From Dehalococcoidia bacterium (GTDB lineage: Bacteria; Chloroflexota; Dehalococcoidia; UBA2979): DNA of 64,000 nucleotides. Location of the stretch: positions 832,001 to 896,000 of the forward strand of contig CAXXDN010000001.1 of assembly GCA_963667465.2 (NCBI GenBank). The letters are read 5' to 3'. Below are positions 2,091 to 33,630 of this stretch, piece after piece. Under the pieces are notes generated by a model. It was given only the letters and a program-made list of their open reading frames with translations. It was not told the origin of the DNA and made no database searches. Position numbers and translations under genes: made by a program. The stretch's first letter is position 1, and the number at the start of each line of letters is the position of its first letter.

Positions 2091-3332
2091 ATGGACTGGA
2101 GCGACAACGAGGAGCAGCAGGACTTTCGCGAGAAGGTCCGCAGCCTGATCGCCGAGCGCCTCCCGGCGCGCTACCGCAGCGGCGGCGTCAACGCGCATCG
2201 CCTCGAGCGCACCTGGGAGTTCGACCGCAAGTCCGAGGACCGCGATCGCCGCGAGGCCGCCGTTGCCTGGTCGGACGCCCTCGCCGAGCACAACTGGGTG
2301 GCGCCCCACTGGCCGGAGGAGTACGGCGGCGGCGGGCTCAGCTCGATGGAGCAGTTCATCCTCAAGCAGGAGCTGGCAAGCTCCGGCGCACCGGCGGTCG
2401 GCGGCTCCGGCACCAACATGCTCGGGCCGACGCTGATCCTCAACGGCACCGAGGAGCAGCGGCGCGAGCACCTGCCGCGCATCCTCTCCGGCGAGGTGAC
2501 CTGGGCGCAGGGCTTCTCCGAGCCGGGCGCGGGCTCGGACCTCGCCTCGCTCTCCACCAGCGCGCGCCGCGACGGTGACGACTACGTGATCAACGGGCAG
2601 AAGATCTGGACCTCGGCAGCCCACACCGCCGACTGGTTCTTCCTGCTCACCCGCACCGACCCCGCCGCGCCGAAGCACCGCGGCATCTCTTTCCTGCTCG
2701 TCGACGGCAAGACACCGGGGATCGGCGTCCAGCCGTTGGTCGACATGAGCGACGTGCACTACTTCAACGAGACCTTCTACGAGGAGGTGCAGACGCCCGT
2801 CTCCAACCTCGTCGGCGAGGAGAACCGCGGCTGGTACGTGGCGATGAACCTGCTCGACTTCGAGCGCTCCAACATCGAGGGCGCCGTCTCGATGCAGCGC
2901 GGCATCGAGAAGCTGCTCTCCTACTGTGCGAGCGAGGAGGGCGCTGCGAAGTCGCTGCTCGGGCGCGGCGGGACGCTGCGCACCGAGGTCGCCGACCGCT
3001 ACATCGAGACGGATGTGATGTTCCAGTTCTCGGCGCGCGTGATCTCGATCCAGGCGGCGGGAATGGTGCCGAACTACGAGGCCTCGACCTCGAAGTTGTT
3101 CAACTCGGAGCTGCTGCAGCGGCTCTCGGCGACGAGTATCAGGACGTTCGGGTTGTACGGGCAGCTCTGGGGGCAGGGCACGGAGGACGGGCCGCAGAGC
3201 GCCTACGCCGCGCAGGGCGGCGCGCCGCCCTACAACTACCTGCGCGCCGTCCCCGCCACGATCCGTGGCGGCACCTCCGAGGTGCAGCGCAACATCATCG
3301 CCACCCGCGGCCTCGGCCTGCCTCGGGGGTAG
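2091..3332 (+). CDS. Acyl-CoA dehydrogenase family protein
   Basis: WAQGFSEPGAGSDLASL, INGQKIWTS, TIRGGTSEVQRNIIA motifs. Confidence 0.95.
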   Translation: MDWSDNEEQQDFREKVRSLIAERLPARYRSGGVNAHRLERTWEFDRKSEDRDRREAAVAWSDALAEHNWVAPHWPEEYGGGGLSSMEQFILKQELASSGAPAVGGSGTNMLGPTLILNGTEEQRREHLPRILSGEVTWAQGFSEPGAGSDLASLSTSARRDGDDYVINGQKIWTSAAHTADWFFLLTRTDPAAPKHRGISFLLVDGKTPGIGVQPLVDMSDVHYFNETFYEEVQTPVSNLVGEENRGWYVAMNLLDFERSNIEGAVSMQRGIEKLLSYCASEEGAAKSLLGRGGTLRTEVADRYIETDVMFQFSARVISIQAAGMVPNYEASTSKLFNSELLQRLSATSIRTFGLYGQLWGQGTEDGPQSAYAAQGGAPPYNYLRAVPATIRGGTSEVQRNIIATRGLGLPRG

Positions 3333-3349
3333 GCGGGGCGCCTCAACCT

Positions 3350-3436
3350 TCCGGCTCCCTCGCCCCTCGCGGGTAGGGCGGGTCGCTCACCCCTCCGGCT
3401 CCCTCGCCCCTTGCGGGAGAGGGTTGGGGTGAGGGG
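3350..3436. repeat. REP-like palindromic repeat family A (two degenerate units)
   Basis: TCCGGCTCCCTCGCCCCT repeated at 3350 and 3394; ends in GGGAGAGGGTTGGGGTGAGGGG as in other family A copies. Confidence 0.7.
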
Positions 3437-3500
3437 TAGCGCACGTTCCGAGACGCGGTATCCTTTCGTCGCGGGGCGTACGGCTGGGGAGGTGCTCACC

Positions 3501-5327
3501 GTGTCGATCTGGCTCATGACGCGCTCGAGGTTCCTCGCGTTGCTGCTGCTCGCCGCCGCGCTCGCCCTCGCCGCCTGCGGCGACGGCGACGATGAGGGCG
3601 ACGGGGATGAGCCCGACACGCCCGAGGCGATCGTCGGCTCGCTCAAGGAGAACGCCGCGGCGTTCGAGTACGAGATCGGAGAGCCGGGCGGCACGATCAC
3701 CTCGTCAACCATCGGCGAGCCGCTGACCTTCAACCTCGCGCTGGCGAATGATGCCTACTCAGCCGGCCTGCTTGGCCTGCTCTTCGACGGCTTGACCGAG
3801 GTCTCGTGGCTCACCGACGAGGCCGAGCCCTCGCTGGCCGAGTCCTGGGAGCACTCGGAGGACGGGCTGACCTGGACCTTCTCCCTGCGCCGCGATGTCA
3901 CCTGGCACGACGGCCAGCCGTTCACCGCCCACGACGTGGATTTCACCTTCAATCGCATCATCTACAACGAGGACATCCCGACGGATACCCGCGCGGCGTT
4001 CATCTTCCGCTTCCTCGAGGACGGCGAGTGGGTTGAGGACACGATGACCGTGACGGCGGTGGACGACTACACGGTGCGCTTCGTGCTGCCGACGTCGTTC
4101 GCGCCCTTCATCCGCTCGATGGGCACTGCGATCTACCCGCGCCACATCCTGGAGCCGCACGTCGACGACGGCACCTTCAACTCCGTCTGGGGCATCGATG
4201 CGGACCCGGCGACGGTGATCGGCACGGGGCCGTTCACCATCGAGAGCTACACCCCCGGCGAGCGCGTCGTGCTGCGGCGCAACCCGCACTACTGGCTGAA
4301 GGACGCCGAGGGCAACAGCCTCCCCTACATCGAGACCGTAGTGCATCTGCTCGTCGACGACATCGAGGCCGAGCTCGCTCTCTTCGAGGCGGGCGACACG
4401 GATGTGCACGGCGTCACAGGCGAGGAGTACGCGGGCCTCAAGCTGCTCGAGGACGAGGGCAACTTCACCATCTACCGGCGTGGCCCGGCCTTCGGGACCA
4501 CGTTCCTCGCCTTCAACCAGAACCCCGGCTCGAACGCCGAGCGCGGCGCGCCCTACGTCGCACCGGAGAAGCTCGCCTGGTTCAGCAACCAGCCGTTCCG
4601 CCGCGCCGTCGCGCACGCCATCGACAGGGACCGGATCGTAGCCGAGGTCATGCACGACCTCGGCTACCCGCAGTGGGCCGCGATCAGCCCGGCGGCGGGC
4701 GACTTCCACAACCCCGACGTGCGCAAGTACGAGTACGACGTCGAGGCGGCGAACGACATCCTCGACGGCCTCGGTTGGACGGACAGCGATGGCGACGGCG
4801 TGCGCGAGGACGGCGCGGGCAACCCGATCGAGTTCTCGCTGATCACGAACGAGGGCAACACCGTCCGCGAGCAGGTGGCGATGCGGATCGCCGAGGGGCT
4901 GGCCGCTCTCGGCCTCAAGGCGAACTACCAGGCGATCGACTTCGGCGACGTGGTCGAACGGCTGGTGACCTCGTACGAGTGGGAGGCGGTGGTGATCGGC
5001 CTGACGGGCGGCACGGAGCCGCACGACGGGATAGGCGTCTGGCACAGCAGCGCCGACCTGCACCTCTGGAATCCGAAGCAGGAGGCCGCGGCGACCGACT
5101 GGGAAGCGCAGATCGACGAGCTCTACATCCTCGGTAGCCAGGAACTGGATCGCGAGAAGCGGGTGGAGCACTACCGCCAGGCCCAGGCGATCGCCGCCGA
5201 GCAGGTGCCGCTGATCTACACGACGCTGCCCGAGCGCCTGAGCGCCGTGCGCAACGTCTTCGGCAACACCACCCCGACGCTCTACGGCCTCTGGGACATC
5301 CGCTACCTCTACCGCACGGACAACTGA
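3501..5327 (+). CDS. ABC transporter peptide/nickel-family substrate-binding lipoprotein (SBP family 5)
   Basis: Lipobox LALAAC; LAESWE..DGLTWTFSLR..WHDGQPFTAHDVDFT; GTGPF; GTG start 8 nt after GGAGG (alternative ATG 3516). Confidence 0.93.
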   Translation: MSIWLMTRSRFLALLLLAAALALAACGDGDDEGDGDEPDTPEAIVGSLKENAAAFEYEIGEPGGTITSSTIGEPLTFNLALANDAYSAGLLGLLFDGLTEVSWLTDEAEPSLAESWEHSEDGLTWTFSLRRDVTWHDGQPFTAHDVDFTFNRIIYNEDIPTDTRAAFIFRFLEDGEWVEDTMTVTAVDDYTVRFVLPTSFAPFIRSMGTAIYPRHILEPHVDDGTFNSVWGIDADPATVIGTGPFTIESYTPGERVVLRRNPHYWLKDAEGNSLPYIETVVHLLVDDIEAELALFEAGDTDVHGVTGEEYAGLKLLEDEGNFTIYRRGPAFGTTFLAFNQNPGSNAERGAPYVAPEKLAWFSNQPFRRAVAHAIDRDRIVAEVMHDLGYPQWAAISPAAGDFHNPDVRKYEYDVEAANDILDGLGWTDSDGDGVREDGAGNPIEFSLITNEGNTVREQVAMRIAEGLAALGLKANYQAIDFGDVVERLVTSYEWEAVVIGLTGGTEPHDGIGVWHSSADLHLWNPKQEAAATDWEAQIDELYILGSQELDREKRVEHYRQAQAIAAEQVPLIYTTLPERLSAVRNVFGNTTPTLYGLWDIRYLYRTDN

Positions 5328-24737: not shown

Positions 24738-26414
24738 GTGCCGTCGCTCGAGTTCAAGGGCAAGTCGCTCGTCTACGCGCACCACCTGACAGTCCCGCAC
24801 CGCCCGCTCGTCGTGGACCCGGTGAGGTCGGTGGGCGAGGCTGGCGCCAACGGCAACCTGATCATCCACGGCGACAACCTGGAGGCGCTGAAAGCGCTGC
24901 TGCCACGCTACGCGGGCCGCGTCAAGTGCATCTACATCGACCCGCCGTACAACACGGGCAACGAGGGCTGGACGTATAACGACAACGTCAACAGCCCGCT
25001 CCTCCAGGAATGGTTCAAGGAGAACTCGCCGGTGGACGGCGAGGACCTCGAACGCCACGACAAGTGGCTGTGCATGATGTGGCCGCGCCTGCATCTGCTG
25101 CGCGAGCTCCTGTCCGAGGACGGCGTGATCTTCGTCTCGATCGACGACAACGAGCAGCACCACCTGCGAATGCTCATGGACGAGATCTTCGGCGAGGAGA
25201 ACTTCCTCTCGTCAATCATGTGGCACAAGTCGTACAGCCCACAGATGGACGCTGCCGGGTTCAGCGTGAGTCACGACTACATCATGTCCTACCGGCGGAG
25301 CGGCTTGGCGATTGTCAATAGGGAACCCTTCGAACAGAACATCGAGCAGTTCCGTTTCACTGAAGCGGCTACAGGGCGACCTTACCGCAGGCGATCACTT
25401 CGGAAAGAAGGAAGTAACTCCCTGCGGGTTGACGCTCCACGATCATGGTTTCCACTCACCGGACCAGACGGAACGCAAGTCTTTCCCTACAAGCCCTTGA
25501 GGGCTGGCGAGAGTGAGCGAATTGAGGGTGTGTGGAGATGGTCCCATGAGACCTATAGCAAGCGCCTCGACAATGGCGAAGTGGAATGGGTGTTGACGGA
25601 TAATGATGGGTGGCAGCCTTATGCAAAGCAATATGTGAACGAGGGTGCAGATCGACCTCCTGGAACAGTTTGGACCTACGACGAAGTAGGCCACACTCAC
25701 GACGCTGCCGAGGAAGTCGCACAGTTGCTCGGACCCAGGGCTTTTCAAACCCCGAAGCCCGTCGCCCTCCTAAAGCGGCTGATAGGGATCGCAACAAGAG
25801 CGGACGACGATCCGATCGTGCTCGACTCCTTCGCGGGCAGCGGTACGACGGCGCACGCGGTGCTGGCGCTCAACCGCGAGGACGGCGGCAGCCGCAAGTT
25901 CATCCTCGTGGAGTGCGAGGACTACGCGGACAGCGTGACCGCCGAGCGGGTGCGCCGGGTGATCGCGGGCGTGCCGGAGGCGAAGGACGAGGCGTTGCGC
26001 GATGGGCTCGGCGGCTCCTTCGCCTACTGCACGCTCGGCGATGCGCTCACCATCGAGGGCTTGCTCACGGGCGACGGGATGCCGTCGTTCGCCGCGCTCG
26101 CGGCGTGGCTGCTGCACACCGCCGCCGGCGTGACCGCCGCCACGTCGGCACTGTCGCCGCTCGACGACGACGGACTCTTCTACGACGACGGGGTATCGCG
26201 CTTCCACCTGCTGTACGAGCCGGATATCGACTTCCTGCGCGGCGAGGACGCGGTACTCACCGAGACGCGCGCGCGGCGCATCGGCGAGGACGGCCGCCGC
26301 AACGGCCGGAAGGCCGTGGTGTTCGCCGCCGCCAAGTACCTCGGCCAGCGCGAACTCAGCGAATACGGCGTCACCTTCAGCCAGCTCCCGTACGAGCTGC
26401 ACCGCAGGGGGTAG
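24738..26414 (+). CDS. mod: Type III R-M system DNA methyltransferase (Mod subunit)
   Basis: IHGDNLEALKAL, IYIDPPYNTG, FVSIDDNE, FQTPKP, VLDSFAGSGTTAHAV; directly upstream of res. Confidence 0.93.
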   Translation: MPSLEFKGKSLVYAHHLTVPHRPLVVDPVRSVGEAGANGNLIIHGDNLEALKALLPRYAGRVKCIYIDPPYNTGNEGWTYNDNVNSPLLQEWFKENSPVDGEDLERHDKWLCMMWPRLHLLRELLSEDGVIFVSIDDNEQHHLRMLMDEIFGEENFLSSIMWHKSYSPQMDAAGFSVSHDYIMSYRRSGLAIVNREPFEQNIEQFRFTEAATGRPYRRRSLRKEGSNSLRVDAPRSWFPLTGPDGTQVFPYKPLRAGESERIEGVWRWSHETYSKRLDNGEVEWVLTDNDGWQPYAKQYVNEGADRPPGTVWTYDEVGHTHDAAEEVAQLLGPRAFQTPKPVALLKRLIGIATRADDDPIVLDSFAGSGTTAHAVLALNREDGGSRKFILVECEDYADSVTAERVRRVIAGVPEAKDEALRDGLGGSFAYCTLGDALTIEGLLTGDGMPSFAALAAWLLHTAAGVTAATSALSPLDDDGLFYDDGVSRFHLLYEPDIDFLRGEDAVLTETRARRIGEDGRRNGRKAVVFAAAKYLGQRELSEYGVTFSQLPYELHRRG

Positions 26415-26426
26415 GACCACCGGGGC

Positions 26427-28934
26427 ATGGAACTCAAGCAGTACCAGATCCGCACGCTCGACGCCTTCGACGCATGGCACAAGGCGCTCGGCGCCGCCCG
26501 CGTGCGCGCTGACTTGATAGTCGCGGCCCTCGCGGACGCCGGACAAGACGTGTCCGAGGGGGCCGCGGACTTCCCGCGTGACGCGTGGCAGAGCCTGGCC
26601 AAGACCGGCGGCGTAGCCGATCCCGGGGCCGCGTACGTCGAGCGGACGGACGACGCGGGTCGCCCCATCCCCCACGCGTGCTTCAAGATCCCGACCGGCG
26701 GCGGCAAGACGCTGCTTGGGGCGGCGGCGCTCGAGCGGCTCGGCATGAGCACCGGATTCGTGCTGTGGATCGTGCCGACGCGCGCGATCTACGAGCAGAC
26801 GAAGGCGGCGCTGTGGAGCCGCGAGCACCCCTACCGCCAGATCCTCGAACGCGCCAGCGCCGGGCGCGTCAAGGTGCTGGAGAAGGACCAGCCGTTCACC
26901 CGCGACGACACCGAGCACTACCTGTGCGTGATGCTGCTCATGCTCCCGGCGGCGAACCGGCGGAAGGGCCGCGACTTCCTGCGCATGTTCCGCGACTCCG
27001 GGCGCTACCCGACGCTGTTCCCCGACGCCGACGACGCGCGTGGCGCGGCGGAGCTGCTGGAGCGTCACCCTGACCTCGAACGCGCGTCGCCGGACGGTCC
27101 GGCCAAACACAGCCTGTTCAACGCACTGAAGGTGCTGCGCCCGGTCGTCGTGCTTGACGAGGCGCACAAGGCGTACGGCAGGAAGGGCGCGGAGGAGTTC
27201 GTGCAGGCGGTCAACCGCCTCGACCCCTCGCTGGTGATCGAGTTGTCGGCCACGCCGACCGGCACGATCAGCAACCTGCTCGTTGACGTGACGGGTGTCG
27301 AGTTGAAGCAGGAGGAGATGGTCAAGCTCCCGGTGCAGGTGTCCTCGCTCGACAACGTCGAGTGGCGCGACGCGTTGGCCCGCGCGCACGACAAGCTCGC
27401 CGAGCTCGCCGCCGAGGCGAGGGCCCTCTGGGGCGACGAGGGCCGTTACATCCGGCCCATCGCCGTCGTGCGCGTCGAGCGGACCGGCAAGGATCAGCGC
27501 GACGGCGAGCGCGTCCACGCCGAGGACGTTCGCGACTACCTCGTTCGGAACCTCGGCGAGTCGCCGGGCGCGGTTCGGGTGAAGTCCGCCGAGCGCGACG
27601 AGATCGCGGGCGAGGATTTGCTGTCGGAGACCTCGCCCGTGCGCTGGATCATCACCCGCGCGGCGCTGATGGAGGGCTGGGACTGCCCGTTCGCCTACCT
27701 CCTCGTCATGCTCGACAACACGAGCAGCCAACGGGCGCTCACGCAGCTGACCGGGCGCGTCATGCGCCAGCCCGACGCGCGCCGCACGGGCCGCGAGGCG
27801 CTCGACCAGTGCTACGTCCACTGCTGGCAGACCGGCGTGGACGGCGCCGTGCGGCAGGTCAAGGCGGGGCTGGAGGAGGAGGGGCTGACCGGCCTCGGCG
27901 ACGACGTCTTCGGCGTCGCCGCCCGCGAGTTCCACAAGCGGGACGTGCCTCGCCGCGAGCGCTTCCAGAACCGCGACATCTTCCTCCCGCGGGTTTCGCA
28001 CCGCGCCGCCGGTGGCGGTTGGCGCGAGCTGGACTACCAGCGCGACATTCTCCCGGCGATCGATTGGCCGTCCATCACCCCGCCCGCGCAACTTGCGCTG
28101 TCGGGCCTCAGCGAGGGGGCGGCGGCGGAGACAGTCACCGTCGACGTCGGACCCGCAGAGCCGTCGCCCGTTCGCCGCGAGGCGCTGGCTGTGGACAAGA
28201 CGATCACGCTCGAGTGGTTCACGCGGCAACTCGCGGACCTCATCCCGAATCCGTGGCAGGGAGCGCGCGTCGTCGGCGAGATGCTTGAGCGGCTGCGTGC
28301 GAACGGCCTCGACGACGAGGCGATCCACGCCCAGCGCCGCGAGCAGGCGCTGGCGTTGCGCGACCACGTCGCGAACGAGGTCGAGCGGCTCGCGGAGGGC
28401 GTGTTCCGGGACAAGCTCCAGGCGGGCGACATCCGCTTCGATCTCGAGGTCGGCCAGCCGAACTTCAAGATGCCGGACAGCGTCCCAATGCGCGTCGCGC
28501 CGGACGACGCTCCGCTGAGCAGCCACGGCGAGCCGGTACAGAAGACCCTGTTCGATCTCGTGCCGCAACGCGACTTCAACAGTCTCGAGCGGAAGTTCGC
28601 GCTGTACCTCGACGCCAGCGAGGCGATCCAATGGTGGCATCGCGTCGCCGTCCGGCAGCAACGCGAGTACTACCTGCGGGGCTGGAAGCCGGACCGCATC
28701 TGGCCGGACTTCGTGGCCATGTCCGACGATACAGCCGACGATCCCGCCCTGTTCATCGTCGAGACGAAGGGCCAGCACCTCGACAACCCGGACACGGAGT
28801 ACAAGCGGCGTGTGCTGGACGCCCTCGAACAGCGCTTCAACGAGTACGGCAAGGTTACGGTCGCGAGCGGCCCGGTCAGGGGCAACTTCTCGATCGTCTT
28901 CAGGGAGTCGGATTTCGCGCAGGCGCTGGCGTAA
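26427..28934 (+). CDS. res: Type III R-M system restriction subunit (SF2 helicase plus PD-(D/E)xK nuclease)
   Basis: PTGGGKT Walker A, VVLDEAH, LSATP, ALMEGWDCP, QLTGRVMR, C-terminal PDF..IVETKG. Confidence 0.92.
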   Translation: MELKQYQIRTLDAFDAWHKALGAARVRADLIVAALADAGQDVSEGAADFPRDAWQSLAKTGGVADPGAAYVERTDDAGRPIPHACFKIPTGGGKTLLGAAALERLGMSTGFVLWIVPTRAIYEQTKAALWSREHPYRQILERASAGRVKVLEKDQPFTRDDTEHYLCVMLLMLPAANRRKGRDFLRMFRDSGRYPTLFPDADDARGAAELLERHPDLERASPDGPAKHSLFNALKVLRPVVVLDEAHKAYGRKGAEEFVQAVNRLDPSLVIELSATPTGTISNLLVDVTGVELKQEEMVKLPVQVSSLDNVEWRDALARAHDKLAELAAEARALWGDEGRYIRPIAVVRVERTGKDQRDGERVHAEDVRDYLVRNLGESPGAVRVKSAERDEIAGEDLLSETSPVRWIITRAALMEGWDCPFAYLLVMLDNTSSQRALTQLTGRVMRQPDARRTGREALDQCYVHCWQTGVDGAVRQVKAGLEEEGLTGLGDDVFGVAAREFHKRDVPRRERFQNRDIFLPRVSHRAAGGGWRELDYQRDILPAIDWPSITPPAQLALSGLSEGAAAETVTVDVGPAEPSPVRREALAVDKTITLEWFTRQLADLIPNPWQGARVVGEMLERLRANGLDDEAIHAQRREQALALRDHVANEVERLAEGVFRDKLQAGDIRFDLEVGQPNFKMPDSVPMRVAPDDAPLSSHGEPVQKTLFDLVPQRDFNSLERKFALYLDASEAIQWWHRVAVRQQREYYLRGWKPDRIWPDFVAMSDDTADDPALFIVETKGQHLDNPDTEYKRRVLDALEQRFNEYGKVTVASGPVRGNFSIVFRESDFAQALA

Positions 28935-30023: not shown

Positions 30024-30509
30024 GTGGGCCTGCATCGCTTCGAGACCCGGCAGGTGGTGCCGATCGGCCTCGACGAGGCGTGGGAGTTCTTCTCGGACCC
30101 GCGCAACCTGGCCGTGATCACGCCGCCGGAAATGGCGTTCGAGGTCGCCTCGCCGCTGCCGGAGCGGATGCATCCGGGGCTGATCGTCGTGCATCGCGTG
30201 CGGCCGCTGTTCGGGCTGCCGGTGACGTGGGTGACGGAGATCACGCAGCTGGTGGAGGGCGAGCTGTTCGTCGACGAGCAGCGCTTCGGGCCGTACCGCT
30301 TCTGGCACCACCAGCACCACTTCCGGCCCGTCGAGGGCGGCGTGGAGATCGGTGACATCGTCCACTACTCGGTGCCGCTGGGCCCGATCGGCGACGTACT
30401 CAACCGGCTGCTGGTCGCCGATCGCGTGCGCGCGATCTTCGAGCACCGCCGCGCCGTCATCGAGCGCCGCTTCGGGCGCGCGCCGGCGGGTGCGGCCCGC
30501 TCGGCCTGA
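30024..30509 (+). CDS. SRPBCC (polyketide cyclase-like) family protein
   Basis: WEFFSDPRNLAVITPP, WVTEIT, FVDEQRFGPYRFWHHQHHF. Confidence 0.9.
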   Translation: MGLHRFETRQVVPIGLDEAWEFFSDPRNLAVITPPEMAFEVASPLPERMHPGLIVVHRVRPLFGLPVTWVTEITQLVEGELFVDEQRFGPYRFWHHQHHFRPVEGGVEIGDIVHYSVPLGPIGDVLNRLLVADRVRAIFEHRRAVIERRFGRAPAGAARSA

Positions 30510-30560
30510 GCGGATAGCGGACGCAGGAGAGCGGCAGCGCTGGCGGCGCTGGCCGCGTCG

Positions 30561-30857
30561 GACCCCCTCACCCCCGCCCTCTCCCGCGAGGGGAGAGGGG
30601 GCCGGATGCCTCGATCCCGTCTCTCCCGGCGGAGGTCGGACCCCCTTCCGATCCCCTCTCCCCCGGCGGGAGAGGGTCAGGGTGAGGGGGATTCCGGAGC
30701 AGCCGGAGCGCGCGCGTCTCGCTGGGCTGTTGCGCCGCCGCAGGGTCCTCGCCCGGCGGGAGCCGGACCCCCTCACCCCCGCCCTCTCCCGCGAGGGGAG
30801 AGGGGGCCGGAGCCGCTGTAGGAGGTTGGGTGTGGCCGCCCTCTCCTGCGAGGGGAG
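30561..30857. repeat. Cluster of family A REP units (BIME-like); the last unit is interrupted by IS110
   Basis: CCCCCTCACCCCCGCCCTCTCCCGCGAGGG.AGAGGGGGCCGG at about 30563 and 30768, an inverted unit near 30652 and a partial unit at 30835-30857. Confidence 0.85.
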
Positions 30858-30880
30858 AGACACCCCAGGGTGCTAAGGCG

Positions 30881-32104
30881 TCAAGCGGCGAGCTGTTCGC
30901 GGTCGTGGCGGTGCGCCCAGGCGGTGGCCTCGTCGTAGGGGCGACGTGCCTTCAGGCAGCCGTGGAGGTAGCCGACGAGGCGGTTGCCGAGAGCGCGCAG
31001 CGCCTGGTGGTGGAGGTCGCCCGCGGCGCGGCGGCGGTGGTAGAAGTCATGGCAGCCGGGGCTCGCCTGCAGCGAGCAGAGCGCCCAGCGGTCCACGGCG
31101 TCGGCGAGCCGGCGGTTGCGCACGAAGCGGGCGCGCACGCTGCGCTTGCGGCCCGATGCTACGGTGAGCGGCGAGGTGCCGGCGTAGTTCCTGCGGGACT
31201 TCGCCGACTCGTAGCGTTCGGGGTCGTCCCCGAACTCGCCGAGCACCCGGGCGCCGAGCACGACACCGAGACCGGGCAGGGAACGGTAGATTGCGGCGTC
31301 CGGGTGCTGCTCAAAATGGCTCGTGAGCGCGGCCTCGAGCTCCGTAAGCTGACGGTTGATCTCGCTGATCTGCGCGACCGCCGCGCGGGTGCTCGCGGCG
31401 AACGCCCGGCTCACGGCAGGCGGCGCCTCGAGTTGCGGGGAGCGCAGCGCGTCGCGCACCGCGGCGGCGCGCCGCTCGAGGTTGCGCTGACGTCCGCCGC
31501 GGCGCAGCGCCGAGCGGATCTTCGACGTGCTCAGGCGCGCCGCCTCGCGCGGCTCGCTCGCCCGCGCCAGCACGCCCAGGGCGTCGCCGTGCGCGAGGCT
31601 GGGGAAGGCCTGCAGGGCAGCCGGGAAATACTCCCTGAGGGCGTTGCGCAGCCGGTTGGTCTGGCGCACGCGGTCCCAGATCAGCTGCTGGTGGGCGCGG
31701 GCGAGGATGCGCACCGCGGCAGCCTCGTCGCTGTCGCCGGCCAGCGGACGGTGGTTGTGGCGGTCGGTGCGCACGAGGTCGGCGAGCAGCTTCGCGTCGG
31801 CGGCGTCGGACTTGGCGCCGCCCAGGTGGTGACGCTCACGGTAGCGCGCCGCCGAGCGGGGGTTGATCGCGTAGACGCGGTAGCCGGCCGCGAGCAGGGC
31901 CGTGACCCAGGGTCCGCGGTCGGTCTCGATGCCGACCACGACCGCGCCCGGGTCTGAGGCGTGCTCGGCAACCAGTTCGTGCAGCACGGCGACGCCCGCG
32001 ACGCCCTCGGGCAGCCGCCTGGCGGCGAGCCGTTCGCCGGCCTCGTTCATGAGCTGGACATCGTGGTGGTCTTCGGACCAGTCGTCACCGACGTAGAGGG
32101 TCAT
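30881..32104 (-). CDS. IS110 family DEDD recombinase/transposase
   Basis: YVGDDW, VGIE, KSDAADA (DEDD RuvC-like), SLPGLG..LG, YAGTSPLTVASG (catalytic Ser), ALRALGNRLV. Confidence 0.96.
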   Translation of the reverse strand: MTLYVGDDWSEDHHDVQLMNEAGERLAARRLPEGVAGVAVLHELVAEHASDPGAVVVGIETDRGPWVTALLAAGYRVYAINPRSAARYRERHHLGGAKSDAADAKLLADLVRTDRHNHRPLAGDSDEAAAVRILARAHQQLIWDRVRQTNRLRNALREYFPAALQAFPSLAHGDALGVLARASEPREAARLSTSKIRSALRRGGRQRNLERRAAAVRDALRSPQLEAPPAVSRAFAASTRAAVAQISEINRQLTELEAALTSHFEQHPDAAIYRSLPGLGVVLGARVLGEFGDDPERYESAKSRRNYAGTSPLTVASGRKRSVRARFVRNRRLADAVDRWALCSLQASPGCHDFYHRRRAAGDLHHQALRALGNRLVGYLHGCLKARRPYDEATAWAHRHDREQLAA

Positions 32105-32149
32105 CGTGCCTCGCTTTCCTGCGCTTCGTGCTGCTGTTTGCGACCTGCC

Positions 32150-32340
32150 GGGCTGGTCCTGCGACGGCCTAATGGACCAGTGCTCTCGGGCACGACACCC
32201 CAGGAGTGCTGTGGACCACCCGGACGCACCAGCCGGGGCACGGTCTCTCCCTGGAGATCGCAGTGTCTCGGGGAGGGGCAGTGCTCACCGGCCGGCCGGT
32301 CCAAGACCAGTCTCCCAGATCGCTCCAGGGTCCGGTCGAA
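32150..32340 (-). ncRNA. IS110 bridge RNA (target-binding loop about 32229-32296; donor-binding loop about 32160-32215)
   Basis: Guides match element ends and target: 32194-32204 is identical to 30859-30869 (11/11); CCATTAG complements donor CTAATGG; GGGAGAG complements target CTCTCCC; each guide pair flanks a short hairpin. RNA ends are approximate. Confidence 0.85.
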
Positions 32341-32376
32341 CCCCATTAGGGGGGCGGAGGGAGAGGGGGGGGCGAG

Positions 32377-33630
32377 CTAGAGCGAGACGGGGAACTCCGT
32401 CAGGCCCTCGCGAGGGGCGCCGACGAGGATCGCCATGTTGCCCGGCGGGTGCTCGTTCTCGTACATCAGCTGGTGGCTCTCACCGACCTCCTCGAAGGCG
32501 AAGACGCGCGAGAGCGCGGGGTCGATGCGGCCCTGCACGACGTAGTCGTTGAACTCGGCGCACTCCTCGACGTTGGCGAAGTGCGATCCCTGGAAGCGCT
32601 TCTGGCGCATCCACAGGTAGCGCAGGTCCACGTCCGCGTTGTAGCCGGAGGTGCCGGCGCAGATGACCACCATCCCGCCGTTGTCGACGAGGAAGATCGA
32701 GGTCGGGATCGTCGCCTCGCCCGGGTGGTCGAAGACGATCGTCGGGTTACGCCGCTCGCCGAGGGCGTCCCAGAAGGCGCGCCCGAACTGGCGCGCTCCG
32801 CCGGCCCACTCGCCGAACGCCGCGGCGTCGTCGATGTCCGGGAGGCGGCCCCAGTGGTCGAAGTCGCGGCGGTTGATCACGCCCTTCGCGCCCAGCTGGT
32901 GGCAAAACTCGTACTTGGACTCGTCGGAGACGACGGCGATCGGGATGCCGCCGAACTCGCGCACGATCTGGATGGCCATGCAGCCGAGGCCGCCCGCGCC
33001 GCCCCAGACCAGCACCGGGTCGCCCTCGTTGACGACGTTGGGCGGCCAGCCGCGCAGCATCCGCCAGGCGGTCGCGCCGACGAGCATGTAGGCGGCGGCG
33101 GCCTCCCAGCTGAGGTGCGGCGGCTTGGGGTAGCACTGGTAGCGGTCGACGAGGCAGTACTGGGCGAAGGAGCCCCAGTTCTCCTCGTAGCCCCAGACCT
33201 TGTTGGTGTTCGACATCATCGGGTCGCGGCCGGCGGCGATGTCGGCGGCGTCCTCGTCCCACATCCCGCAGGAGAGCACGACCTCGTCACCGACCTTGAC
33301 GTTCGTGACCTCGTCGCCGACGGCCCAGACGATGCCCGAGGCATCGGAACCGCCGATGTGGAAGTCCTCCTCGGCGCCCTGGCGGCGGCGCGCGTCGATC
33401 ACGTTGACGGGGGTGCCGAGGGCGGCCCAGACGTTGTTGTAGTTGGTGCCCGCCGCCATCACGTAGACCAGCACCTGGCGCGGGCCCACCGCGGGCACGT
33501 CGATCTGCTCGATCGCGAAGGCGTCGCGCGGCTGGCCGAAGCGCGATTCGCGGATCAGGCTGGCGTGCATCTTTTGCGGGACTTCGCCGACGGGCGGCGC
33601 CTCGCCGACGTTCGTGATCTCGATCGCCAT
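32377..33630 (-). CDS. ccr: Crotonyl-CoA carboxylase/reductase
   Basis: [62 protein letters not shown]. Confidence 0.93.

Follow-up and report, generated by a model that had tools for sequence, protein, structure and literature searches.

The window analysed here, a stretch of 64,000 nt (positions 832,001 to 896,000 of contig CAXXDN010000001.1, from the Dehalococcoidia bacterium assembly GCA_963667465.2), carries on its minus strand an insertion sequence of the IS110 group (Table 1). Judged from its sequence, the element is an intact, recently active IS110-family insertion sequence, whose own predicted guide RNA steers it into a hairpin repeat of the host. We put the probability at roughly 0.9 that it is autonomous and moves by bridge-RNA-guided recombination, a reading drawn by analogy with IS621 of Escherichia coli. 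The evidence collected here covers the ends of the element, its copy number, its insertion sites, the integrity of its domains and catalytic residues, and the covariation both within the RNA structure and between guides and flanks.

Ends and copies of the element

A search of the contigs of the own genome (2.97 Mb in two contigs, C1 and C2; 93.56% complete, 70.7% G+C) found 10 full-length copies with identical ends. Their flanks diverge exactly outside the two CTs, so the ends of the element are fixed independently of the initial annotation, whose two donor ends are confirmed by all of the 10 copies. Read on the minus strand, the element starts with CT-AATGGGG at 32349 and ends with ...CCTGGGGTGT-CT at 30858. 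Nine out of 10 copies are identical across 1,492 bp and the tenth has a single C>T change. The non-coding left end spans 245 nt before the ATG and the right end 22 nt after the stop codon; compared as inverted repeats, the termini match at six out of 30 positions, i.e. there are no terminal inverted repeats.

One extra, partial copy lies at a contig end. Since it has the right flank of the copy at C1:3265, it probably results from an assembly overlap and does not represent an eleventh copy. The ends of C2 (1903720–1904564) and C1 (∼3265–4870) hold the same copy of the element together with the same neighbouring repeat, in opposite orientation, and the two contigs probably overlap at this insertion sequence.

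Guides in the left end covary with targets and ends

Two internal loops of the predicted bridge RNA hold four guides: a left and a right target guide (LTG and RTG) in the first loop, and a left and a right donor guide (LDG and RDG) in the second. The initial annotation had proposed all four from the letters alone; its coordinates and strings are all present in the sequence, the guides lie where it placed them, and the exact matches it reported for the RTG (7/7), the LDG (11/11) and the RDG (7/7) are borne out. The RTG is exact at nine out of 10 own right flanks. The LTG agrees with the own left flanks at 5–7 of seven non-core positions over the 10 copies. At the studied copy its position stands but the earlier count of seven out of nine does not: in the register fixed by the homologues, five out of seven non-core positions and the first core base agree (6/9), and 7/9 is reached only with a slide of 1 nt.

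The covariation of both target guides with their own flanks is the decisive test of the bridge RNA reading. We collected 80 related loci, mostly from metagenome-assembled genomes (MAGs) labelled Dehalococcoidia (75–92% protein identity), with a few at 67–71% protein identity from records labelled as Actinomycetota or as groups inside it (Acidimicrobiales, Pseudonocardiaceae, Mycobacterium and Smaragdicoccus). A left end is recognisable in 78 of them (all except L020 and L083), and 69 also have a right end; CT precedes AATGG in 77 of the 78 left ends (L097 has TT). The 25 guide types among these loci were collapsed to 15 independent specificities, using one site per guide type and one member each of two palindrome-targeting groups (the rest, including L082, were left out). 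L087, L090 and L096, for which no right end was found, were also left out of the permutation test, and L091 and L092 supplied the left and the right flank, respectively, of a single element type, since the contigs of both break off within the flanks.

Over the 15 specificities, the segment homologous to the LTG agrees with its own left flank at 75 out of 105 positions, compared with a mean of 2.33 out of seven when guides and flanks are cross-paired. The segment homologous to the RTG, reverse-complemented, agrees with its own right flank at 70 out of 75 non-core positions (cross-pairing mean 1.76 out of five). None of 100,000 permutations of guides against flanks reached the LTG sum, and none of 100,000 reached the RTG sum. 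Relatives with 67–85% protein identity have unrelated insertion sites with matching guides; repeat targeting was therefore acquired within this clade, in agreement with the earlier suggestion of an independent case.

The RDG is conserved throughout the left-end alignment of 24 homologues described below; L063 and L071 carry one G:U change in it. Where the right end has GGGA for GGGG, the same change is found in the LDG in six out of seven rows (L088, L089, L091, L092, L093 and L095, but not L097; L094, of the same group, falls outside this tally). For an estimate of chance, the left end was resampled 200,000 times under a first-order Markov model: the 11-mer LDG is contained in 67 resamples and the 7-mer RDG in 217, and the RTG 7-mer GGGAGAG, which is weak evidence alone, in 18,783 (9.4%). 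All three strings together occur in none of the 200,000.

In IS621, handshake guides are described immediately 3' of the right guides (PMC11208158), and by analogy the dinucleotides AC and GC found in the two loops here (Table 1) are candidate handshake guides. The candidate in the target loop is AC or AT in the homologues. For the candidate in the donor loop, L088, L090 and L096 have G at target position −1 and C as the base after the RDG, whereas the other aligned homologues have C at position −1 and G as that base (both candidates were read by eye).

Structure of the predicted bridge RNA

RNAalifold was run on an alignment of 24 left ends (that of the studied element and those of 23 related loci) and gave a stem-loop on the 5' side, a long stem that encloses an internal loop and an inner hairpin, and a GTGC/GCAC hairpin. 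The full structure has 33 pairs in five helices, four of which were recovered by RNAalifold; the other, the outer stem of the donor loop, was drawn by hand in a region where the alignment is uncertain. Over the whole structure 94.2% of the cells are paired, against 30–48% when the partners are slid by 1–3 columns, and 15 pairs show compensatory changes on both sides, which none of 500 shuffles reached.

The target stem-loop contains helix 2 (14 pairs, 98.5% paired, six compensatory) and helix 3 (four pairs, 99% paired, three compensatory), and its inner hairpin is GAGA/TCTC here and GCGG/CCGC, GGAG/CTCC and others in homologues. In the donor stem-loop, the outer stem (helix 4; six pairs, 77.3% paired, four compensatory) is the weakest of the five helices and the GTGC/GCAC hairpin (helix 5; four pairs) is invariant. 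The consensus fold contains the closing pairs (GCAC/GTGC) and both hairpins (GAGA/TCTC and GTGC/GCAC) of the initial annotation, whose proposal of an IS621-type layout is supported by structural covariation among the 24 homologues and by guide–target covariation over the 15 specificities. RNAalifold also paired the very first bases of the left end with the RDG. This is probably complementarity at the DNA level and not RNA structure, since transcription would start after the first ∼10–14 nt.

Table 1. Coordinates of the element, its predicted parts and the adjoining repeats (positions in the window)
Feature	Position	Strand	Description
Whole IS110-group insertion sequence	30858..32349	minus	1,492 bp including the CT core at both ends; ends taken from 10 full genome copies
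CT core, left (5') junction	32348..32349	minus	CT then AATGG in 10/10 own copies
CT core, right (3') junction	30858..30859	minus	right end ...GGGGTGT-CT in 10/10 own copies
5' stem-loop of predicted bridge RNA	32305..32337	minus	element positions 13–45; helix 1: five pairs, 93.3% of cells paired, two pairs changed on both sides
Predicted target-binding stem-loop	32228..32296	minus	element positions 54–122; outer stem, internal loop, inner hairpin
Left target guide (LTG) CCCCTCCCC	32270..32278	minus	CCCCTCC, then CC at the two core positions
Right target guide (RTG) GGGAGAG	32245..32251	minus	reverse complement of CT+CTCCC
Candidate target-loop handshake guide AC	32243..32244	minus	complements GT, the last two right-end bases before the core
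Predicted donor-binding stem-loop	32154..32218	minus	element positions 132–196; helices 4 and 5
Left donor guide (LDG) CCTGGGGTGTC	32194..32204	minus	11/11 match to the right end, first core base included
Right donor guide (RDG) CCATTAG	32169..32175	minus	7/7, reverse complement of CT+AATGG at the left end
Candidate donor-loop handshake guide GC	32167..32168	minus	first base complements target position −1 (C)
Recombinase gene, 407 aa	30881..32104	minus	DEDD RuvC-like and Tnp domains; Pfam, conserved residues, fold
Candidate −35 box TTGACG	30879..30884	minus	overlaps the stop codon; 18 nt upstream of TCTAAT
Left target flank of the studied copy (...CCCTCTCCCTCCGCCCCC)	32350..32371	minus	departs from the family consensus CCCCCTCACCCCCGCC
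Right target flank, rest of the interrupted hairpin (CTCCCCTCGCAGGAGAGGG)	30839..30857	minus	joined with CC-CT of the left flank restores a palindrome with 8-bp arms
Three further intact palindrome copies adjoining the element	30577–30599, 30654–30676, 30782–30804		pattern scan of the window

Insertion into a palindromic repeat of the host

All 10 own copies lie within one family of REP-like palindromes (REP, repetitive extragenic palindromic), with CT on both sides of each copy. The right flank is CTCCC in nine of them and continues into the second arm of the palindrome. The left flanks follow the pattern ...CCCCCTCACCCCC[G/A/C/T]CC, from which some depart, among them that of the studied copy (...CCCTCCGCCCCC). 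The rebuilt target is CCCCNCC-CT-CTCCC, in which the core falls inside the 5' arm of the hairpin. The repeat unit is roughly 45 nt long, with arms CCCTCTCCC/GGGAGAGGG, bordered by a GGGGTGAGGGG tail and, on the opposite side, by GGCCGGA. Its perfect-arm pattern has 118 hits in the genome over both strands, which correspond to ∼59 loci because the pattern is its own reverse complement, and 42 unoccupied sites in the genome fit the 14-nt target pattern CCCCNCCCTCTCCC. In the window the palindrome is matched seven times (0.01 expected by chance): besides the three copies adjoining the element, matches are found at 3401, 14060, 14256 and 51730. The palindromes at 30577–30804, the only copies viewed for gene context, sit between the end of an open reading frame at 30509 and the element.

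The initial annotation had called the repeat REP-like and inferred a case of REP targeting. Insertion into a host palindromic repeat is confirmed (10/10 copies, nine of them with CTCCC), but the label stays at REP-like, on two grounds. One is that no RAYT transposase (Y1 transposase, PF01797) was matched in the own genome, whose 93.56% completeness makes this no proof of absence; a control search found the family in six out of 14 reference genomes. The other is that a GTAG or CGTC tag at one end, given as a mark of REPs in PMC3733652, was not seen, nor were the complements of these tags, when the commonest form of the repeat unit was read by eye. The palindrome family is thus abundant in a genome in which the RAYT search gave no match.

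The recombinase

The protein encoded by the element is assigned to PF01548 (DEDD_Tnp_IS110, 6.9e-38) and PF02371 (Transposase_20, 7.1e-11), and has 13,218 relatives at E ≤ 0.001 in a library of representatives. We aligned it with 30 full-length relatives of 31–60% identity; D8, E60, D100, D103, S317 and G318 are invariant across these 31 diverse homologues. A phmmer search with the single protein against the PDB, at thresholds of 0.001 and 10, gave no true match, and a profile of the 31 homologues was therefore needed. The profile matched the IS621 transposase best (8wt6_A, 8.1e-34), with ISCro4 second (2.1e-33), and aligned the GiD, iE, DxxDA and SG motifs opposite their IS621 counterparts (the active site of IS621 is given as D11, E60, D102, D105 and S241-G242 in PMC11208158).

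An AlphaFold2 model of the protein was obtained with a predicted local distance difference test score (pLDDT) of 93.3 and a predicted template modelling score (pTM) of 0.87. The top 10 PDB matches of the model found by Foldseek are all IS621 or ISCro4 chains, including structures of the synaptic complex (the best is IS621 8wt9_C: E = 2.6e-13, TM 0.62 by query and 0.78 by target). Because the Pfam domains, the invariant catalytic residues and a predicted IS621-like fold are all present, the gene looks catalytically intact, which agrees with the earlier identification of an IS110 element with an apparently intact recombinase.

The only Rfam hit above its gathering score between 30500 and 32700 lies inside this gene: Ms_AS-4 (RF02464, a small RNA of Actinobacteria) matches 31199–31280 on the plus strand with 65.1 bits (gathering score 50), antisense to the most conserved part of the gene. 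The match probably reflects conserved IS110 coding sequence and not a separate small RNA gene.

Proposed mechanism and a candidate promoter across the circle junction

Transcription, the circle intermediate and catalysis are inferred by analogy, with steps modelled on IS621. The element would be excised as a circle, in which the joined right and left ends would create a sigma-70-like promoter (TTGACG, 18 nt, TCTAAT) that would transcribe the left end into a bridge RNA of ∼200 nt. The first internal loop of this RNA would read the target: its 5' side (CCCCTCC and two core positions) would pair with the bottom strand left of CT, and its 3' side (GGGAGAG) with the top strand CT+CTCCC. The second internal loop would read the joined ends of the element in the same two-strand way (with CCTGGGGTGTC and CCATTAG), and the 407-aa DEDD/Ser recombinase would exchange strands at CT. 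The programmed target CCCCNCC-CT-CTCCC being the 5' arm of an abundant host palindrome of ∼45 nt, the element would land in intergenic hairpins.

For IS621, a sigma-70 promoter rebuilt across the circle junction is reported (PMC11208160). Here the hexamer TCTAAT arises only when the ends are joined: the right end contributes its final T, the core CT, and the left end AAT. The CTTGAC of the right end is found at the same distance in 17 out of 18 representative elements although the neighbouring coding sequence differs. We regard TTGACG-N18-TCTAAT as a candidate for a promoter that is completed only in the circular form.

Contigs assembled from sequencing runs (X1, X3, X5 and X9 of 21 runs) stop at the element ends 30858 and 32351. 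Short contigs bridge both junctions of the studied copy in X1 and the left junction in X3, and the contig joints listed fall among the neighbouring palindromes.

Opposing observations and alternative explanations

Several observations weigh against bridge-RNA-guided insertion, some of them concerning the left target guide. The LTG match at the studied copy is weak, lies in a C-rich stretch and is not significant alone; it gains weight only because the other copies and the covariation among the homologues support the LTG. Even against the commonest sites this guide is imperfect, owing to two positions. At −3 it carries U, facing a G:C pair, although G is the base in most targets; at the second core position it carries C, although the target reads T. 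In sister elements that share the target, the core positions of the guide are CT, CC or CA. Among the relatives, the LTG of L061 and L062 scores 1/7 in register and fits only with a shift of 1 nt, and the fit is 2/7 in L073 and 3/7 in L095. The group of L073 is represented in the test by L075 (6/7), and the LTG sum would be 71/105 with L073 instead.

Other opposing observations concern the right flank, the RNA and the circle. When genomic copies and flanks were mapped, a check suggested along with the initial annotation, all 10 had the same ends and one (L002, C2:1583211–1584702) had a right flank of AACCC, with two mismatches next to the core; L018 and L019, relatives of a sister guide type from other MAGs, also have AACCC. 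No RNA family was found on the left end in an Rfam scan of 30500–32700 at E ≤ 1, and the minimum-energy fold computed from this one left-end sequence does not stand out (z = −0.51), which is why comparative folding was used. In the assembled contigs there is no joint of right and left end and none that skips the element, but such contigs cannot show rare forms and the absent junction says nothing about activity.

The AACCC right flank is thus seen at three independent copies, and AA also follows the core at the element's own left end. A standing variant of the repeat was considered as the source of this flank and rejected: the nine genomic CCCTAACCC sites belong to another sub-family, with TAACC to the left of the usual core. 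Recurring as it does at three independent sites, the CT|AA right junction might reflect an alternative resolution or insertion through a half-match.

It is possible, although on balance doubtful, that specificity comes only partly from the bridge RNA, chiefly from its right guide, and that the DNA hairpin of the repeat is a second determinant needed by the recombinase. A second determinant would explain why mismatches of the left guide are tolerated: at most sites the LTG is mismatched at −3 (where the own sites show all four bases) and at the second core base, and nevertheless 10 near-identical copies exist. The left half of target recognition is in this sense tolerant and leaves room for a contribution of the hairpin. 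All own sites keep the palindrome immediately to the right, a second specificity (L066, L067, L069 and L070) also lies inside an inverted repeat, and a dual-match logic is reported for ISPpu10 in a 2026 preprint (10.64898/2026.03.19.712850). However, relatives with other guides are found at sites without an evident palindrome (L074, L084 and L086), which argues against the hairpin as a family-wide requirement; and structure and sequence are not separable at the sites studied here, since the hairpin arm is itself the target of the RTG.

It is very unlikely that the element is a fossil that spread in the past and no longer moves. The assembled contigs, with neither a circle junction nor a polymorphic empty site, would fit a fossil, but nine copies are identical and the remaining one differs by a single change across 1,492 bp, and the reading frame and all catalytic residues are intact; in addition, the closest element in any other genome searched has 92% nucleotide identity, and the expansion therefore took place within this lineage.

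Recognition of the palindrome by the protein only, with the guide-like matches as by-products of a G+C-rich, low-complexity left end, could draw on the frequency of GGGAGAG in resampled left ends (9.4%), on the position of the LTG in a C-run (6/9 at the studied copy) and on the unremarkable single-sequence fold, but is very improbable given that both target guides change in step with the flanks over 15 specificities that are mostly not C-rich (0/100,000 permutations) and that the LDG and the RDG are rare by chance (67 and 217 of 200,000) and the three guide strings never occur together. Recombination guided by the bridge RNA remains the reading that we prefer.

Relatives and sister elements

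Full-length relatives with 82–92% nucleotide identity are multicopy in seven out of 18 genomes of the same genus; a search of 12 further genomes of the class gave short weak matches and no full-length relative. The right guide of the studied element is shared by 42 of the 78 related left ends, which form two sets. The first set has left guides like that of the studied element, on CACCCCCGCC|CT. The second set (L018–L024 without L020, plus L072 and L082) has the left guide GGCTCC or GGACCC and the target TCCGG[C/T][T/C]CC|CT, which is the reverse-complement face of the same palindrome unit. Both sets can be found in single assemblies (e.g. L042 together with L019 and L072, or L025 together with L082).

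Compared with L025–L042 and others, the sister elements (L018–L024, L072 and L082) have the same right guide, a different left guide and insertion sites on the opposite strand of the palindrome unit. We tentatively suggest, as a rather unlikely scenario, that sister IS110 lineages with ∼90% identical recombinases in one uncultured genus have split the faces of the palindrome between them (CACCCCCGCC-CT-CTCCC versus TCCGGCTCC-CT-CTCCC on the opposite strand), keeping the right guide and rewriting the left guide alone, with a left guide that is tolerant at −3 and accepts any second core base. If true, the split would be a natural record of the retargeting of one half of a loop, and would hint that much of the specificity lies in the hairpin and not in the left guide.

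One MAG contains four copies of a relative with different guides (L066, L067, L069 and L070). Their flanks are near-identical and form an inverted repeat, TCGGACA...TGTCCGA, on either side of the core, so that a further repeated palindrome seems to serve as the target here.

Comparison with known elements

The element has every feature of IS110-group membership that can be checked in a sequence. It resembles IS621 (PDB 8wt6–8wt9) in domain order, in the DEDD and Ser-Gly catalytic residues, in the fold (predicted here) and in the CT core. The long left end with a 5' stem-loop, a target loop and a donor loop of the same strand logic (as described for IS621 in PMC11208160), the candidate promoter rebuilt across the circle junction and the insertion into a host palindromic repeat are further likenesses. 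The two proteins, however, share only ∼18–20% identity over the structural alignment; IS621 has 326 residues and an RTG of 4 nt (G77–G80) according to PMC11208158, against 407 aa and 7 nt here, and its left end is given as 191 bp in PMC11208160, against 245 nt. The target repeats are unrelated in sequence, and the host of the element studied here has 70.7% G+C, with the closest relatives in MAGs labelled Dehalococcoidia. ISCro4, another bridge recombinase (PDB 9t56), is the second-best match both by profile (2.1e-33) and by fold (TM 0.60/0.74), with ∼19% identity.

ISPpu9 and ISPpu10 of Pseudomonas putida, which we compared by their published descriptions, are likewise multicopy IS110-family elements, each inserted in a REP of the host (PMC1525189, PMC12288879). 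For ISPpu10, a stem-loop of the target is reported to add specificity (10.64898/2026.03.19.712850); the stem-loop of ISPpu10 is described in the same preprint as a 5' extension of the target, whereas here the core is inside the 5' arm and the hairpin extends to the right. Elements of the IS1111 group with a seekRNA share the recombinase family and an RNA-guided choice of target (PMC11187229, PMC11208160). They differ in having the RNA in a long right end and sub-terminal inverted repeats (PMC11208160); in the element studied here the left end holds the predicted RNA, 22 nt follow the stop codon, and the termini match as inverted repeats at six out of 30 positions.

Bridge RNAs have been predicted in 85.7% of IS110-group elements, covarying with their targets at scale (PMC11208160), and REP-specific IS110 elements (IS621, ISPpu9, ISPpu10 and others) have been known since 2003–2006 (PMC1525189, PMC11208160). 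The mechanism (described in 2024) and the targeting of REPs by IS110 elements are therefore already published, and the picture of the IS110 mechanism is unchanged by this element; what is new is a member from an uncultured lineage labelled Dehalococcoidia. A text search of a paper library found no paper pairing IS110 with Dehalococcoidia (the supplementary orthologue catalogues of PMC11208160, which possibly list the clade, are outside this search) and, among the matches listed, none on REPs in Chloroflexi as judged by titles or the starts of abstracts.

Among natural bridge-RNA elements, this is a well-documented case from an uncultured lineage of high G+C content that is distant from the proteobacterial models, and it is also a candidate orthologue for recombinase engineering. 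Its close relatives supply a ready series of target loops that nature has reprogrammed, at least 15 in number, including the pair of sister elements that splits the two sides of one palindrome, and the −3 mismatch and the free second core base of the left guide provide comparative material on guide tolerance.

The own genome also has three copies, 99.3–100% identical, of a second element of the IS110 family, ∼1,515 bp long (C2:∼26000–27600, C1:∼459200–460800 and C1:∼222800–224300). It has an open frame of 423 codons and its own CTTGAC near the right end; its ends fall in C-runs and its flanks have no obvious target in common.

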